A DNA stretch of 35,370 nucleotides from a virus (Duplodnaviria > Heunggongvirae > Uroviricota > Caudoviricetes): IMG/VR virus record IMGVR_UViG_2778261227_000014. One strand, given 5' to 3'. A program made the position numbers and the translations under genes. Positions within the stretch are counted from its first letter, which is position 1. Every line of letters starts with the position of its first letter. This document shows positions 4,860 to 25,547 of this stretch, piece by piece. Below the pieces are notes generated by a model. That model did no database searches. It saw only the letters and a list, made by a program, of their open reading frames with translations, and was not told the origin of the DNA.

Positions 4860-4924
4860 GCACCATCAACCACCAGGAATTACATCCATCATCATTTCCG
4901 AGATGCCAACAGGCTCTTCACAGT

Positions 4925-5392
4925 TCAGAAACTGCACAACCAGCAAATTAACCTTTCGGAGTAACGCAAATGTTCGCTGGCAGACAACCCAACAGATGCA
5001 CTCGCTTTGTTTTTTGCGGGCCTGACAAACGCTTTCATGTATGCGCTGTTCGTTTCTTCCAGATGCAGAATGCGCTCAATGAGGCGTTCAGTACTCATGA
5101 AATCCCTTTGCGTAATCAGACGAAGGTAGCTCTGTTTCTGCCAGCACGCCCATTCGGCAACGCACTCAAACTTACTGCAAAACCAGGAAAAAACAAAAAA
5201 CGCCAGCCCGCAAAGACTCATCAGGACGGGGAAACCTACGAGAAGAAAGGAGAATACCGCAGCAATCAGTGCCCCGGCGCGCAACACGGCAGCGGCTTTA
5301 TTGCTGAGTATGAAAACCATCTCTTCCAGCCAGTAGCTGTACCACAGATGGAAAAAAATCTTCTTGTCTGCTTGCTCCATAGCAACAGGCAT
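4925..5392 (-). CDS. Membrane protein (2 predicted TM helices plus C-terminal soluble domain), function unknown; antisense to the early operon
   Basis: ATG at 5392 with GGAGG 5-6 nt upstream on the - strand (the track start at 5398 is TTG). Hydrophobic stretches AAVLRAGALIAAVFSFLLVGFPVLM and LCGLAFFVFSWF. The overlapping + ORF 4970-6085 has non-protein-like composition. Confidence 0.55.
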   Translation of the reverse strand: MPVAMEQADKKIFFHLWYSYWLEEMVFILSNKAAAVLRAGALIAAVFSFLLVGFPVLMSLCGLAFFVFSWFCSKFECVAEWACWQKQSYLRLITQRDFMSTERLIERILHLEETNSAYMKAFVRPAKNKASASVGLSASEHLRYSERLICWLCSF

Positions 5393-5449
5393 AAACAACC
5401 TCCATTGTTAATAAACGCCGCTATCCTTCGGCGCATTCCATTTTTGCGC

Positions 5450-5485
5450 CGCGATTATACATACTTCAGCACGCAACACAAAAAC
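5450..5485 (-). promoter_or_regulatory. Candidate sigma70 promoter for the antisense membrane-protein gene
   Basis: On the - strand TTGCGT ... TGTATATAAT (perfect TATAAT, + coordinates 5454-5459, with upstream TG); spacing to the -35-like hexamer is short, so extended -10 usage is assumed. Confidence 0.35.
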
Positions 5486-5547
5486 CGCTTGCCAGCGCTC
5501 GTTGAGTCGGGTTACATTTCCGCTGCACCTCATAAAACGGGTGCCGG

Positions 5548-5733
5548 GATTCTCAACCCGCTGACTACACACGCGCACAACCGCGCCAGCGGTTTTTTTG
5601 TGCGTACTGTATTGCCACGTCTTATTCGCGTCAGAATTATGGCGGGGCGTACGGGGCCGACTTCGGTCGGGCCGGGATCGTGTGTAGCCGGTGTTGAGAA
5701 CCCCGTACGTCTCGCCACCCCGAGATTCTCAAC
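5548..5733. repeat. Three copies of the GATTCTCAAC motif (two direct, one inverted) around a GC-rich stem-loop region
   Basis: gattctcaac at 5548-5557 and 5724-5733; inverted copy gttgagaa at 5693-5700; cgtacgggg (5648-5656) complementary to ccccgtacg (5701-5709), enclosing the ccgac-ttcg-gtcgg hairpin at 5657-5670. Confidence 0.5.
5578..5599 (+). terminator. Candidate intrinsic terminator inside the early region
   Basis: aaccgc-gcca-gcggtt hairpin followed by T7 (ggtttttttg) on the + strand. Confidence 0.45.
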
Positions 5734-5778
5734 TCTGGATGGTGAGTTTTCAAAACTTACTATACACGAGGCCACGTC

Positions 5779-6009
5779 ATGGCAAACCGCAAGCAACAGC
5801 GCGCCCGCGCTGAGCGTATTCACATCCGCAGCGAAATCAACCGCAGACTTTTTCGCGCAACACGCGTCGCGCAAATCATGCACATCAATATGTTGCATGA
5901 GCGCAGCCACGCACTATCAAACATTTATTCCGCCTCTGTTTTCAGCTATCTGGCGGATGATCTGCACGAGCTTCAACAGCTCATCCAGCAGCAAAACAAA
6001 CTCCATTAA
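5779..6009 (+). CDS. Small basic protein, hypothetical
   Basis: 76-aa ORF, GAGG upstream of the ATG; N-terminus MANRKQQRARAERIHIRSEINRRLF is arginine-rich. Confidence 0.5.
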   Translation: MANRKQQRARAERIHIRSEINRRLFRATRVAQIMHINMLHERSHALSNIYSASVFSYLADDLHELQQLIQQQNKLH

Positions 6010-6081
6010 TTCCTGTTCCGGGCCTTTCCTGCACCTTGCGGCGGGAGGCCTTCGCACATCTGTAACAAGAGGATTGCCGCA

Positions 6082-6447
6082 ATGATTCTCGCCAACGACT
6101 TTCTTGAATACCTGCTCAACACAGAGCGTGATCTTGCCGCTCGCGTGCGTGATCGTTATGACATGTACCTGAAATCCCTGCCTGTACTGCAGCTCGCTGA
6201 CGGAAAGATTGTTATTGATGGTCGCTACATGATTGACAGCCACGAGGGAAATTACAGGCTTTACCGCATTGAAGGTGGCACCCCGTCCGTTATTGGCATT
6301 TACCAGCGCCCATCCTCTGCAATCGTCGATGTGATTGCCGACAGCATCCGCATCACACATCGCCATGCCGACACAGAAGACACCGTGCTGGAAATTCAGC
6401 GGCTGGCTACAGTCTGCCGCGACACCCTGAATGGCATGACGAAGTAA
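6082..6447 (+). CDS. Hypothetical protein immediately upstream of the replication gene
   Basis: 121-aa ORF, AAGAGGA 7 nt upstream of the ATG; stop 6 nt before the A start. Confidence 0.55.
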   Translation: MILANDFLEYLLNTERDLAARVRDRYDMYLKSLPVLQLADGKIVIDGRYMIDSHEGNYRLYRIEGGTPSVIGIYQRPSSAIVDVIADSIRITHRHADTEDTVLEIQRLATVCRDTLNGMTK

Positions 6448-6453
6448 ATCACT

Positions 6454-9276
6454 ATGACGGCAGAGTACATCAGGGACTGGCAACAACCGCGCCACGCAGT
6501 GGGGTGTGAAGGAACGGGGATCCCCGCTCCTGAATCCGCGCTTTCCTCCTGGCTGGATGCCTACCGGGCTGAGAACGAGCGCCGCCAGGAAATGGCTGAT
6601 GCGGCGTTCTCCGCCACACCGCTGGGCAACCTGATTAATAAAAGCCTGGACGCACAGGAAAAACAGGACAAAACCATCACACTGGCAGGAGACGCCAGAA
6701 AACAGGCACGCGGCGCGGTGGATGAAGCCATGGCCTCGCTGCGCCTGCTGCCGTCCTATCTGCGCGATCCGCTTATTCGCCACCTCTCCTTCCTGCGCAA
6801 AAAACAGGAAGCCGATCGCCGGAAAGGCAAAAAGAGCTGGCAGGCGGAACGCTATGCACGCGGACCCCTGCGCAAAATATTCGAACGTCTGGATAGCACT
6901 GACGGACGCTGGCTGACACCGGGTTATCGCTCCCTTGCCGGACGCGAACGCCTGGACGATTTGCTTTACCTGCCGCAGCTCAACAAACACCAGATACAGA
7001 CGCTGGCCACCATGACGGCGGCGATGTTCAGCAGCACCTTCGAAAAACTCTGCGATGGCTTTGGCGCGACCGATGGCGAGCTGACCATGGATGTAACCCT
7101 GAAGGCGTATCAGATGCTGGCCCGCATGGCGTTACACCTGCACGCCATGCCTCCACATTATGACGCACTGACGACAGACAAAGACCGGAGGAACGAACCG
7201 GACACGGAGCTGCTGCCGGGCGCAATCCTTCGCCTGACCTGTGCGGAATGGTGGAAACGCAAACTGTGGCTGTTACGTTGCGAGTGGAGAGAAGAACAAC
7301 TCCGCGCCGCCTGTCTGGTTTCCAGAAAAACATCACCCTATCTGAGCCAGGACGCGTTAAGCGAGTTTCGCGCACAGCGCGAGAAAACACGCGATTTCCT
7401 GAAAAGTTTCATGCTGGAAAATGAAGACGGGTTCACGATTGATCTCGAGACAGTGTATTACGCGGGAGTAAGTAACCCGGTTCACCGTAAGGCAGAAATG
7501 ATGGCCACCATGAAGGGGCTGGAACTTCTGGCCGAAGCCCGTGGCGACAAAGCGGTGTTTCTGACTGTCACCTGCCCGTCAAAATACCACGCCACAACAG
7601 AGAACGGTCATCCGAATCCCAAATGGAACGGGGCCACCATGCGCGACTCCAGCGATTACCTGGTTAACACGTTTTTTGCAGCGGTCCGCAAGAAACTGAA
7701 CCGCAACGGCCTGCGCTGGTATGGCATCCGCACGGTGGAGCCTCACCATGACGGCACCGTGCACTGGCATATGATGGTCTTTGCTCATCCGGAAGAAATC
7801 GACACCATTGTGTCCCACACCCGCGATATTGCCATTCAGGAAGATCGTCACGAGCTGGGTGATGATATTACCCCACGCTTTAAGGCAGAGTACGTCGACG
7901 GTTCGAAAGGTACGCCGACCAGCTACATCGCCACCTACATCGGAAAGAACCTGGACAGCCGCGCCGTGGGTGGCATTGACCCGAAAACAAGCAAGCCACG
8001 CGTTGATCACGAAACCGGAAAATCAATGGCCGAGAGCGTGGAACGCGCCATCGGCTGGGCGCGCCTTCACCGCGTCCGCCAGTTCCAGTTCTTTGGTATC
8101 CCCTCCCGTCAGGTATGGCGTGAACTCCGCCGCCTTGCCAGTCAGATGGCCCGCAACCCGGAAGGTCCACAACGTCTGGAAAATGACGCAATGGATGCGG
8201 TACTCGCTGCCGCTGATGCCGGGTGTTTTGCCACCTACATTGAGAAACAGGGTGGCGTACTTGTTCCACGCAAGGATTACCTGATTCGCACCGCCTACGA
8301 CCTCGCAGAAGAGCTGAACGATTACGGCGAGCAAAGCGTACAGATTTACGGGATCTGGTCGCCACAAATCGGGGAATCTTCCCGCGTGTGCACGCACCCG
8401 GATAACTGGAAGCTGGTAAGACGTAAACCGGAAGCGGAAGACAGCGCCCGCGAAAATGGTTTTGACCTTCAGGGCGGCCCTGCCGCCCCTTGGACTCGTG
8501 GCAATAACTGTCCCCGTGTACAGGAAACGGACAACAACGGGACAGAACAGCCGGAAGAACGGCCAGCACCGTGGCCGCAGCTCCCTGACGGCGTTGAAGT
8601 GAACGAATGGATGCGCTCACTGAAACGGCACGAACGCCGGGCGCTGATGCGTTCGCTTCGTGACAAACAGGCAAAAAACAGCAGTGATGAAATGCAGAGC
8701 TGGACACAGAGCCGCAAACAGCAGCGGCCTTTGCCTGATAACCACGAATTACTCGCTAAAGAATGGCGGGAGTCTGCTGAATCTCTCGGCCTGCATATCG
8801 GTGAACAGCAGATGCAGCACCTGTTACGGGGCGGCAGTCTGTACGTTGACGGCAGCATCATTGCACCGCAGGGATTTGAAATTGTACGCAAACCGGATAC
8901 CCGACCGGACAGCCGGATCACGCAGCTCTGGCAGCGCCTGAGCCGTAACCACGGCGTAAGCAGCACGGAGATCCGCCATAACCCGGTCGCCAGCTATCTG
9001 GAACAGCTGGGGGCATCAGACCCCGAAGCCGCCGCACGCCTGGCATCCACACTTCAGCAAGACCAGAACACCATGAAAACACCCGTTACCGTGCTTTCTG
9101 ACATGCTGCGCGCCATCCGCGACGCAGAGCACGCACAGAGAATCAGTGAAACCACTGAACGCGCCCGCCGCAAAGCAGACCTGCTGCGGGGTGGCCTGAC
9201 CATTGGAAACAAAAAACAGACAGAAACGGGATTCACAAATCCCGTAAATGAGCAAAAAACGCGCCGCGATATATGA
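6454..9276 (+). CDS. A: Rolling-circle replication initiator, P2 gpA-like endonuclease
   Basis: 940 aa. HUH-type metal motif GTVHWHMMVFAH and paired active-site tyrosines YIATYIGKN (Y-x3-Y), as in P2 A / phiX174 A-type initiators; position after the early genes. Overlapping - strand ORFs (7880-8707 and others) are treated as high-GC artefacts. Confidence 0.85.
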   Translation: MTAEYIRDWQQPRHAVGCEGTGIPAPESALSSWLDAYRAENERRQEMADAAFSATPLGNLINKSLDAQEKQDKTITLAGDARKQARGAVDEAMASLRLLPSYLRDPLIRHLSFLRKKQEADRRKGKKSWQAERYARGPLRKIFERLDSTDGRWLTPGYRSLAGRERLDDLLYLPQLNKHQIQTLATMTAAMFSSTFEKLCDGFGATDGELTMDVTLKAYQMLARMALHLHAMPPHYDALTTDKDRRNEPDTELLPGAILRLTCAEWWKRKLWLLRCEWREEQLRAACLVSRKTSPYLSQDALSEFRAQREKTRDFLKSFMLENEDGFTIDLETVYYAGVSNPVHRKAEMMATMKGLELLAEARGDKAVFLTVTCPSKYHATTENGHPNPKWNGATMRDSSDYLVNTFFAAVRKKLNRNGLRWYGIRTVEPHHDGTVHWHMMVFAHPEEIDTIVSHTRDIAIQEDRHELGDDITPRFKAEYVDGSKGTPTSYIATYIGKNLDSRAVGGIDPKTSKPRVDHETGKSMAESVERAIGWARLHRVRQFQFFGIPSRQVWRELRRLASQMARNPEGPQRLENDAMDAVLAAADAGCFATYIEKQGGVLVPRKDYLIRTAYDLAEELNDYGEQSVQIYGIWSPQIGESSRVCTHPDNWKLVRRKPEAEDSARENGFDLQGGPAAPWTRGNNCPRVQETDNNGTEQPEERPAPWPQLPDGVEVNEWMRSLKRHERRALMRSLRDKQAKNSSDEMQSWTQSRKQQRPLPDNHELLAKEWRESAESLGLHIGEQQMQHLLRGGSLYVDGSIIAPQGFEIVRKPDTRPDSRITQLWQRLSRNHGVSSTEIRHNPVASYLEQLGASDPEAAARLASTLQQDQNTMKTPVTVLSDMLRAIRDAEHAQRISETTERARRKADLLRGGLTIGNKKQTETGFTNPVNEQKTRRDI

Positions 9277-9352: not shown

Positions 9353-10312
9353 ATGAAAATTTGTATCGATGACGGCTCCACCAACATCAAGCTGGCATGG
9401 ACTGAGAACGGCGAACGCCGCAACGCCATCAGCCCGAACAGCTTCAAGTCGGAATGGTCTGCGCCGTTCGGTGGCACGCAGCCCGCGAACTACATGCTTG
9501 ATGGCGTGCGCTATGGTTTTGATCCGGTCAGCGATCGCTTTGTCCAGACGACCGACACGCAATACCAGTACAGCGATGTGAATGTCATTGCCATTCATCA
9601 CGCGCTGGTCAAATCAGGCATCACACCACAGGAAGTGGATGTGGTTGTCACCCTGCCACTGAGCGAATATTTCGACACAAACGCACAGCCGGACATGGCC
9701 AACATCAACCGCAAAAAAGCAAACGTCATGCGTCCGGTGGCGTACCAGAACGGAAAAGCATTCACTATCCGTAACGTACGGGTTATGCCTGAATCCATTC
9801 CGGCTGGTTTTAAAGCACTGGCTGACATGAGTCCGTTTGAATCCCTGCTGATTGTGGATTTAGGCGGAACCACGCTGGATGTGGCAAAGGTTCAGGGACA
9901 ACTGGCGGGTATCAGCCAGGTGTTTTGCGATCCACACGTAGGCGTTTCCCTGATGGCCGATGCCGTACTGTCGGTGATGGCCACTAACGGTATGCGCACC
10001 AGTCACCACATCGCCAATACCATTATCGAACATCGCCATGATGAAGCCTGGCTGCGCCAGCACATCCACAATGACGCGCATTACGCCAGCCTGATGGCGG
10101 TTATTCGTGAAAAGGAAGAAACACTGAAACAACGCGTGATCCGCGCGCTGGCGGTTTTTTCGGGTTACGGGCGGGTGATGGTTGTCGGTGGCGGGGCGGA
10201 GATTGTGGCACCCGCTATCCGCGAAGCCTGCGGAGTTAATGCGACTTTCATCGCGGACGGGGTGCCACAATTTGCTCTGGTTAATGGGCTGTACGCAATG
10301 AACAAGGAGTAA
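9353..10312 (+). CDS. parM: ParM/StbA-like actin-type segregation ATPase
   Basis: 319 aa; N-terminal MKICIDDGSTNIKLAW closely matches plasmid R1 ParM (MLVFIDDGSTNIKLQW, from memory); further shared blocks YSDVNVIAIHHAL, VMPESIPAG, LLIVDLGGTTLD, GVSL, FSGY, VMVVGGGAEI, LVNGLY. AGGA RBS 8 nt upstream. Confidence 0.8.
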   Translation: MKICIDDGSTNIKLAWTENGERRNAISPNSFKSEWSAPFGGTQPANYMLDGVRYGFDPVSDRFVQTTDTQYQYSDVNVIAIHHALVKSGITPQEVDVVVTLPLSEYFDTNAQPDMANINRKKANVMRPVAYQNGKAFTIRNVRVMPESIPAGFKALADMSPFESLLIVDLGGTTLDVAKVQGQLAGISQVFCDPHVGVSLMADAVLSVMATNGMRTSHHIANTIIEHRHDEAWLRQHIHNDAHYASLMAVIREKEETLKQRVIRALAVFSGYGRVMVVGGGAEIVAPAIREACGVNATFIADGVPQFALVNGLYAMNKE

Positions 10313-24948: not shown

Positions 24949-25547
24949 TGGCATTCAGAATGAGTGAACAACCACGAACCATAAAAATTTATAATCTGCT
25001 GGTCGGAACCAATGAATTTATTGGTGAAGGTGATGCATACATTCCACCTCATACAGGTCTACCTGCAAATAGTACTGATATTGCTCCGCCAGATATTCCA
25101 GCTGGCTTCGTGGCTATTTTCAACAGTGATGAGGCATCGTGGCATCTTGTTGAAGACCATCGGGGTAAAACAGTTTATGACGTGGCATCAGGGGACGCGT
25201 TATTTATTTCTGAACTCGGCTCATTACCGGAAAATGTCACTTGGTTATCCCCGGAAGGGGAGTTTCAGAAGTGGAACGGCACAACGTGGGTGAAAGATGC
25301 AGAAGCAGAAAAAGTGTTCCGGATACGGGAGGCGGAAGAAACAAAAAACAGCCTCATGCAGGTAGCCAGTGAGCATATTTCGCCACTTCAAGATGCCGTA
25401 GATTTGAATATTGCAACAGAGGAAGAAACATCGTTACTGGTGGCATGGAAGAAGTATCGAGTGCTGCTGAACCGTGTTGATACATCAAGAGCACCGGATA
25501 TTGAGTGGCCAGCTTCCCCAGTGGAATCAAGGAGTAAACAAGCATAA
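24948..25547 (+). CDS. G: Tail fibre assembly chaperone, P2 gpG-like
   Basis: 199 aa immediately after H (TAATG overlap). Confidence 0.8.

Follow-up and report, generated by a model that had tools for sequence, protein, structure and literature searches.

The window analysed here, a 35,370-nt stretch of viral DNA (IMG/VR record IMGVR_UViG_2778261227_000014), is a P2-like prophage of the P88/Xuanwuvirus type, and the region upstream of its replication genes very probably represents an RNA-based immunity module of the P1 immI/P4 type, that is, the "IsrK-C4 system" (PMC3632133, PMC4825925, PMC2864571). Two RNAs belonging to curated families, IsrK and C4, are encoded in tandem behind a conserved promoter, the first of them ending in a conserved terminator. 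The C4-like RNA folds in such a way that two seeds, a' and b', are exposed, each being complementary to two target sites (a1 and a2, b1 and b2); this three-way complementarity covaries among homologues, and b2 lies over the ribosome site of the first downstream gene. Transcription, processing and repression would proceed by analogy with what has been reported for P1, P4 and Gifsy-1.

Organization of the locus and its RNA elements

In the window, genes for an integrase, a C-like repressor, a Cox-like protein and early functions, together with a cargo gene on the minus strand (nt 4925–5392), precede the RNA region, which is followed in order by a 76-aa ORF, a 121-aa ORF, a 940-aa gene A, ParM and a partition protein (Table 1). 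The first-pass annotation had taken nt 5393–5778 as one structured non-coding interval. Similarity to P88 and its relatives started at about nt 5468, approximately 20 bp before the promoter-like -35; the element was thus found to extend from nt 5468 onward, whereas the first 75 nt or so (nt 5393–5467), holding the 5′-end and the ribosome site of the minus-strand gene, fall outside it. Every feature listed in that annotation was present in the region, and chance falls far short of explaining them, given that both RNAs exceed the curated Rfam thresholds.

Table 1. Predicted features of the RNA region and the genes following it (coordinates of the window)
Feature	Position (nt)	Strand	Remarks
Sigma-70-like promoter	-35 TTGCCA 5489–5494, 18-bp spacer, -10 TACATT 5513–5518	+	9/12 consensus matches
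IsrK / P4-seqA / c4-a1b1-type leader RNA	5525–5599	+	Rfam RF01394
a1 target site TTCTCAAC	5550–5557	+	Loop of isrK hairpin 2; complementary to a'
b1 target site CTACACACG	5565–5573	+	isrK spacer; complementary to b'
Intrinsic terminator of short isrK transcript (putative)	5579–5600	+	6-bp stem, GCCA loop, T7 run
C4 / P4-CI-type antisense RNA	5635–5722	+	Rfam RF01695
b' seed CGUGUGUAG (CGTGTGTAG at 5679, complement of the b motif)	5679–5687	+	P3 loop of C4
a' seed GUUGAGAA	5693–5700	+	Single-stranded C4 junction
a2 target site TTCTCAAC	5726–5733	+	mRNA leader, 9 nt past C4 closing stem
b2 target site CTATACACG(A)	5760–5769	+	Overlaps Shine-Dalgarno GAGG 5768–5771
First gene of unit, 76-aa protein, P4 epsilon 'Derepression' family	5779–6009	+	PF25738, PHROG 3688
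orf121	6082–6447	+	PHROG 3237, function not assigned in PHROG
Gene A, replication endonuclease	6454–9276	+	PF05840, 438 bits

Both promoter hexamers were invariant across 38 distinct homologues (see below), the transcription start predicted at about nt 5525 coincided with the 5′-end of the isrK match, and the -10 aligned with that of the annotated P1 promoter P1c4/P51b and with the P4 PLE region. A second promoter-like site, TTGCCA at nt 5612–5617 with AATTAT at nt 5635–5640, was rejected: roughly a dozen of the 38 variants have TCGCCA as its -35, and transcripts begun at this site would lack part of the C4 stem. No operator of the C repressor was found at the isrK promoter, the candidate operator TATAAGTACAC occurring only at nt 2490–2534 and, with up to 2 mismatches allowed, nowhere near nt 5489–5518, although this test is weak because the C operator was itself inferred.

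The Rfam scan of the whole window returned a full-length isrK match (61.8 bits versus a gathering score of 50, positions 1–77 of 77), located between the promoter and C4 and ending 35 nt upstream of the C4 match. It comprises hairpin 1 (nt 5525–5544), hairpin 2 (nt 5545–5560), a single-stranded spacer and a terminator hairpin, and its stems were 99% to 100% paired in the 38 homologues. The intrinsic terminator recorded previously, AACCGC-GCCA-GCGGTT at nt 5579–5594 followed by seven T residues, is this third, 3′ hairpin of isrK; its sequence was invariant in the homologues, and its earlier assignment to a short transcript agrees with this position. For overlapping matches within one Rfam clan the best alone was retained, isrK being listed without a clan, and the c4-a1b1 family (RF03163) had no reported match in the window at E ≤ 1.

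The C4 match covered model positions 1–87 of 87 (76.8 bits versus a gathering score of 45, E 1.6e-13). It consists of the closing stem P1 with 17 bp (nt 5640–5656 with 5701–5717), hairpin P2 with a UUCG loop (nt 5657–5670), hairpin P3 with a 12-nt loop (nt 5671–5692), and an 8-nt single-stranded junction (nt 5693–5700); the long-range stem enclosing a CCGAC-UUCG-GUCGG hairpin, noticed in the first reading of the sequence, corresponds to P1 and P2. The minimum-free-energy fold was identical to the model structure, at -49 kcal/mol. All 27 stem pairs of C4 were 100% paired in the 38 homologues, 4 of them with compensatory change, and the internal stems overall were 99.9% paired with 4 compensatory pairs. 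If it corresponds to the C4 annotated in phage P1, the mature RNA would span approximately nt 5641–5719; its flanks, AUGG on the 5′ side and GCCACC on the 3′ side, are conserved. Thus, the Rfam/Infernal search that had been proposed as a check identified the element immediately, and the suggestion that a small RNA is encoded here was borne out by two matches above the gathering scores, isrK and the C4 antisense RNA.

Two short motifs link the two RNAs and the mRNA leader. The first, GATTCTCAAC, had been described as two direct copies and one inverted copy; the direct copies are at nt 5548–5557 and 5724–5733, but in inverse orientation just the 8-mer GTTGAGAA occurs, at nt 5693–5700, the full 10-mer reverse complement being absent. 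The core TTCTCAAC has 4 matches in the window versus 1.1 expected, 3 of them inside 184 bp. The second triplet, CTAYACACG, is rarer and had been overlooked; it lies at nt 5565 and 5760 and, inverted, at nt 5679 (3 matches versus 0.2 expected, a number reached by none of 100 shuffles). Both seeds occupy unpaired parts of the C4 fold, and ATG 5779 is situated 7 nt past the GAGG that b2 overlaps. Whole-sequence duplex folding of C4 with isrK or the leader was uninformative because it ignores intramolecular structure, and seed-only duplexes with random-window controls were used in its place: with the leader, b' gave -17.2 kcal/mol and a' gave -10.2 kcal/mol, values that 0.5% and 1.3% of random windows, respectively, attained. 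The a helix has only 7–8 bp, and its outermost pair was unpaired in 24 of the 38 sequences. A hairpin predicted by folding between a2 and b2 (nt 5740–5762) was 75.5% paired, with no compensatory change, and did no better than shuffles; it is therefore not claimed.

The 76-aa protein predicted from the first ORF matched PF25738 marginally (29.2 bits, cut-off 27), a family whose archetype is P4 epsilon (170 bits), and shared 30% identity over 50 aa with P4 epsilon itself (E 4e-7). P4 epsilon inactivates the repressor of its helper (PMC8628076), and for the 76-aa protein an anti-repressor role is putative, by analogy with that report. No terminator-like site was found among the intrinsic sites scanned between nt 5600 and 6500, and orf121 and gene A would be co-regulated within the transcription unit of the first gene. 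The origin of P2 lies within gene A, and the earlier statement that the RNA region is not the origin agrees with this. Neither the P1 c4/P4 CI immunity system nor the relation of the ORF at nt 5779 to the P4 epsilon family had been recognised in the first-pass annotation.

Comparison with related systems and proposed mode of action

The c4 and c4-a1b1 motifs were described by Weinberg et al. 2010 (PMC2864571). Alignment of the window with P4 and P1 revealed a common order of promoter, hairpin, a1 in a hairpin loop, b1, terminator-like hairpin, C4, a2, b2, GAGG and ATG; the spacing of these parts was also common to the three, with a2 a few nt past C4. A like comparison was made by Hershko-Shalev et al. 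for Gifsy-1 IsrK and the processed RNA STnc1160 (PMC4825925).

The P4 immunity region has the order PLE - seqA - CI RNA/seqB - seqC - ... - epsilon - orf151 - orf106 - alpha. Both Rfam models matched it (CI 74.9 bits, seqA 60.8 bits) and, as in the window, an epsilon-family gene and then a replication gene are located downstream. The two loci differ in that the host element here is a full P2-like phage whereas P4 is a satellite, the replication gene encodes gpA (a rolling-circle endonuclease) instead of the alpha primase-helicase, and b2 is followed directly by the epsilon-like gene, without an intervening kil/eta-type ORF. Their seeds also differ, P4 having UUCUCAC as a' and CCUGUGAAG as b' versus GUUGAGAA and CGUGUGUAG in the window, and the homology of the epsilon proteins is weak, confined to the 50 aa mentioned above.

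In P1 and P7, immI is arranged as P51a/b - a1 b1 - c4 - a2 b2 - icd - ant1/2, and a1, b1, C4, a2, b2 and icd are all annotated in the P1 record. P1 C4 is a member of the C4 family (68.8 bits), and the "a1, b1 targets of C4" of P1 scored 51 bits with RF03163. The window resembles P1 in having a2 just past C4 and b2 about 10 nt ahead of the start codon of the first ORF, and both P1 and P4 in that b2 runs into GAGG-ATG. The likeness would extend to the logic, an antisense RNA gating an anti-repressor, and to the role of the seeds in defining immunity specificity, as between P1 and P7. It does not extend to the genes controlled: icd and ant homologues are absent, the first ORFs encode epsilon-family and PHROG 3237 proteins, and no relation of these to icd or ant turned up. 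P1 furthermore has the C1 operator Op51 at its promoter, whereas no repressor operator was found here, and the element ahead of C4 in the window matches isrK over its full length and has a strong predicted terminator, versus an isrK score of only 35 bits for P1.

The isrK-orf45-anrP-isrJ locus of Gifsy-1 has an arrangement that the window would share: an isrK-family RNA that ends at a terminator or is read through, a complementary RNA processed from the sequence downstream and then an anti-repressor gene (PMC4825925). It differs in being described as an activator of AnrP translation and induction, in having a different anti-repressor as its downstream gene, and in its host phage, which is lambdoid and not P2-like. 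Prophages of other Enterobacterales, from 16 other genera, possess an identical C4 scaffold with matching a1/b1/a2/b2 geometry (a1 at about -112, b1 at about -97, a2 at about +7 with a range of +6 to +9, and b2 at about +37, followed by (G)AGG..ATG). In the loci sampled, the first gene behind this scaffold is usually of the Rha (PF09669) or BRO-N-like type; first/second ORFs were scanned from 5 of 23 loci, and 3 of these 5 had a Rha match in the first ORF. The gpA module follows the scaffold in only 3 of the 23 loci. P4 epsilon matched, by tblastn, only the Serratia and Salmonella loci, both of which also have gpA. An interpretation of the species-wide scaffold matches as P4-like satellites was rejected, P4 alpha not being found in them by tblastn.

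RNase P processes the C4/CI RNA in P1 and P4. By analogy with these systems and Gifsy-1, transcription from the predicted promoter would yield a leader, the first 75 nt of which carry a1 and b1 in the isrK/seqA-like RNA and end at the intrinsic terminator. Some transcripts would stop there, and from those that read through RNase P would release the C4-like RNA as a stable molecule about 78 nt long. This RNA would present b' in its 12-nt hairpin loop and a' in its 8-nt junction, for pairing in trans with a2 and b2 on the mRNA of its own operon. Because b2 overlaps the Shine-Dalgarno of the epsilon-like ORF, such pairing should block its translation, and expression of orf121 and gene A would be lowered via polarity or premature termination. 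The sites a1 and b1 would serve as a second partner of the seeds, either in cis within the precursor or as part of a short decoy or co-target RNA, and the seed sequences would set immunity specificity.

It is possible, though short of probable, that C4 acts chiefly as in P4, pairing with the nascent leader sites (a1/b1, a2/b2) and causing premature transcription termination, so that gene A is turned off transcriptionally and occlusion of the ribosome site is secondary. The C4 and isrK elements score as near to P4 CI and seqA as to anything else, the operon logic of epsilon-family gene, small ORF and replication gene parallels the P4 left operon, and the CI RNA of P4 is described as terminating via seqA and seqC (PMC4825925). 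However, b2 is placed over the Shine-Dalgarno exactly as in P1, where translation is blocked, and the intrinsic-site scan showed nothing terminator-like past a2/b2 up to nt 6500. The translational block and the termination mode are not exclusive. The earlier idea of an attenuation point ahead of gene A is plausible solely if understood as such a putative P4-type, antisense-dependent termination.

A positive control of the Gifsy-1 type appears rather doubtful. The short IsrK-like RNA would then act in trans on the read-through transcript or titrate C4 via a1/b1, the ribosome site would be opened and the anti-repressor switched on, and the locus would serve mainly as an induction trigger instead of determining immunity. 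In Salmonella Gifsy-1, IsrK activates orf45-anrP translation, is itself needed for prophage induction, and is complementary to the downstream processed RNA STnc1160 (PMC4825925). The isrK of the window has perfect a1/b1 decoys and a predicted terminator of its own, and in the minimum-free-energy fold predicted for the read-through RNA a1b1 and a'b' are paired in cis, although this is a single-sequence prediction. Against this reading, seqA of P4 is required to establish immunity, not to relieve it (PMC3632133).

Control of copy number or replication, with C4 as a dosage-dependent antisense inhibitor of gene A comparable to plasmid Rep antisense control, by which replication would be held off or restricted in a prophage or plasmid-like state, is unlikely. 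The module is directly upstream of the gpA replicase and the ParM/partition cassette, a C4 scaffold precedes a gpA homologue in three other genera, and a complete relative was deposited as a 34.5-kb circular 'plasmid', a record that may, however, represent an excised phage circle. On the other hand, the scaffold elsewhere usually precedes Rha-/BRO-type anti-repressor-like genes in the loci sampled, and the ribosome site open to occlusion is that of the epsilon-like ORF, which lies 675 nt ahead of gene A.

Covariation of seeds and targets

Homologues were sampled as 80 IMG/VR loci encoding the 76-aa protein at 87% to 100% identity, which reduced to 38 distinct versions of nt 5468–5790. Whereas the promoter, the isrK hairpins, the terminator and the C4 stems were almost invariant in these versions, variation was concentrated in the six blocks a1, b1, b', a', a2 and b2: the minor-allele fraction was 0.256 within the blocks versus 0.058 elsewhere, and 30 of 51 columns in the blocks, versus 10 of 239 elsewhere, had three or more bases. 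Despite this variation, a1b1 remained 96.1% paired with a'b', with compensatory changes in 11 of 17 pairs and a covariation of 0.646 versus 0.119 for shuffled alignments (reached in 0 of 500); registers slid along the sequence gave at most 0.19. The b1:b' helix was 100% paired, 7 of its 9 pairs showing compensatory change. For a2b2 with a'b', 93.8% were paired, 10 of 19 pairs were compensatory, and the covariation was 0.564 versus 0.122 (0 of 500). Judged by these patterns, the six blocks are RNA pairing sites.

The 38 versions contained 14 seed combinations, built from 6 types of a' and 12 types of b' that were combinatorially mixed; natural types include GTTGAGAA/CGTGTGTAG and ACTGCGAA/CTTGTGTAG. 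Seeds paired with targets of their own element at about 16 of 17 positions and with those of other types at about 11 of 17. In one variant the b' of another type is present as an insertion, a footprint of recombination.

The same variation bears on whether the region encodes a protein. The first-pass annotation had found no convincing ORF, and none that is credible was found here; a single frame stays open, which is accounted for otherwise. It is highly improbable that an 'Ash-family' ORF runs through isrK and C4, for example as the 148-codon frame from AUG 5639 to nt 6085. This frame matches Pfam PF10554 (Phage_ASH) over nt 5513–5788 with 21.8 bits (E 2.7e-4), 76 of 81 loci retain the 148-codon ORF uninterrupted, with a stop codon that overlaps the orf121 ATG (ATGA), and orf45 of Gifsy-1 is a precedent for translation across a C4-like region (PMC4825925). 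However, the Pfam score is under the cut-off, the variation pattern is that of RNA-pairing covariation, and the frame is broken by indel variants and is open by chance in 12% of synonymous recodings of the epsilon-like gene. The codon-position spectrum of changes, 14/15/26, shows only the third-position excess expected from the epsilon-like frame, a Shine-Dalgarno is absent before nt 5639, and AUG 5639 is itself at the RNase P cleavage site by analogy with P1. A coding potential of the open frame or of the 148-codon ORF is thus unsupported by score, indels, recodings and codon positions alike. Pfam PF10554 appears to model a translation of this RNA locus.

A reading of the repeats as DNA-level iterons or operators, bound by gpA or by the small basic protein encoded next to them, had been considered for GATTCTCAAC and is extremely improbable: direct and inverted 8–10-mer copies beside a replication gene are superficially iteron-like, but two unrelated and independent motifs are each present as the same kind of triplet, the copies occupy unpaired loop and junction positions in two curated RNA families, some targets deviate from the exact complement only by G-U-keeping changes (e.g., b2 CTATACACG), the P2 origin is elsewhere, and the blocks covary as base-pairing partners, their six a types and 12 b types being combinatorially mixed beside a near-constant neighbour protein, which argues against protein-binding sites.

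Distribution, seed types and significance

The 323-bp module was present in 1179 of 5426 complete E. coli genomes, in up to 4 copies. Elements with the exact seeds of the window were found only in P2-like contigs, 6 in total, 2 of which have a divergent gpA. In genomes with two copies the seeds differed in 5 of 5 cases, which is weak support for avoidance of a shared type by co-resident copies because chance predicts the same when many types exist. One pair of IMG/VR loci (L061/L064) has identical seeds, which probably reflects an assembly break.

The element can be annotated at once from Rfam and is therefore not new as a kind of system; it adds to the well-known C4/CI antisense immunity family a member that resides in a P2-like phage and has a seed specificity of its own, and the mechanism itself is textbook. 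Its interest lies in where it is found: P2-like phages, the immunity of which is normally described through the C repressor alone, here carry an RNA immunity module of the P1/P4 type together with an epsilon-family gene; no paper on this module in P88-like/Xuanwuvirus phages was found in the literature searched. As a tentative proposal, P88-like phages may have a bipartite, P1-like immunity in which C/Cox is complemented by IsrK-C4 gating an epsilon-like anti-repressor and gpA, and in which a seed 'barcode' decides co-residence or silencing among related prophages. If so, the barcode would have at least 14 types (6 a' by 12 b'), perhaps also covering satellites with the same type of module, and phage-phage exclusion would have a hidden layer, at the RNA level, in about a fifth of E. 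coli genomes. The 38 natural variants constitute a ready-made series of compensatory mutations that pin down the interacting nucleotides and, since they show at least 14 specificities, make predictions of cross-immunity directly testable.

The RefSeq record of the O103:H2 strain 12009 leaves the interval from the minus-strand gene to the 76-aa ORF without any annotated feature. The P88 record has a minus-strand CDS for a hypothetical protein across isrK and C4, which is probably spurious.

Movement of the RNA module and variation of its seeds

Over window positions 4916-6072, the membrane-protein gene, the RNA module and the epsilon-like gene were 93-96% identical to those of two related contigs (L086 and L088), whereas gpA of the same contigs shared just ~69-70% identity with that of the window, and homology with phage P88 began only at ~5468. 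These sequence comparisons indicate that the RNA module travels as a cassette among P2-like backbones. In the related locus L081, alignment columns 214-230 held a 17-nt insertion, ATTCTTTGCTCTCCGGT, at the equivalent of the P3 loop of the window C4 RNA (~5675); it reads as a b' seed belonging to a different specificity type, joined to a duplicate of the P3 3' strand. Judged from its sequence, this insertion appears to be a footprint of recombination or duplication between immunity types. Symbiopectobacterium purcellii carried two C4 modules on the same strand, 950 bp apart (6516-6564 and 7469-7517), with seeds unlike each other; seeds likewise differed between the copies in the other two-copy genomes (n = 4).

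A complete P88-like phage genome was deposited as a plasmid (NZ_CP148288.1, circular, 34,461 bp), possessing int, C, cox, the RNA module, gpA, ParM, partition and structural genes. This deposition, together with the ParM/partition genes of the window, prompts one to ask whether such phages can exist in a plasmid-like state.

Features of the prophage and of the corresponding P88 region (window coordinates unless stated)
Feature	Position	Strand	Remark
Membrane-protein gene	4925-5392	-	PHROG 6315
Terminator-like hairpin CGCCG-CTATCCTT-CGGCG	5416-5433	+	weak T-rich tail after stem
SF19_gp13, hypothetical CDS	P88 5033-5221 (= window ~5530-5718)	-	GenBank/RefSeq P88 annotation
148-codon ORF	5639-6085	+	starts at the conserved AUGG of the C4 5' flank
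ParM/partition genes	9353-10312 and following
IS009 (RF02111)	25291-25489	+	Rfam match, 187.7 bits (gathering score 117)

Reading frames and a protein family overlapping the RNA genes

The 148-codon ORF was out of frame with the epsilon-like gene that it overlaps, its stop overlapped the ATG of orf121 (ATGA, 6082-6085), and it was unbroken in 76 of the 81 loci. A coding function has a precedent in orf45 of Gifsy-1 (PMC4825925); the frame stayed open by chance in 12% of synonymous recodings, and the codon-position spectrum revealed no extra constraint on it. The ORF is probably non-coding. SF19_gp13 of the P88 record, antisense to both isrK and C4, is most likely a spurious call across RNA genes.

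The translated isrK-C4-target region (window 5513-5788, plus-strand frame of ORF 4970-6085) matched Pfam Phage_ASH (PF10554) at 21.8 bits, which is below the cut-off, and the old P4 "cI ORF" over the CI RNA/seqC part (P4 8168-8584, minus strand) matched the same family at 59.7 bits. Since both matches are to translations of such regions, PF10554 looks like the translation of an RNA locus. The family has served elsewhere as an epsilon marker (PMC8628076), whereas P4 epsilon itself is a member of PF25738.

Further sites in the prophage

Between the C-like and Cox-like genes, at 2490-2534, TATAAGTACAC occurred three times without mismatch, twice in direct and once in inverted orientation, and these copies are candidate C-repressor operators; near the isrK promoter, no copy of TATAAGTACAC was found. 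The terminator-like hairpin lay in the divergent intergenic stretch, directly upstream of the RNA module. The IS009 match was situated elsewhere in the prophage.
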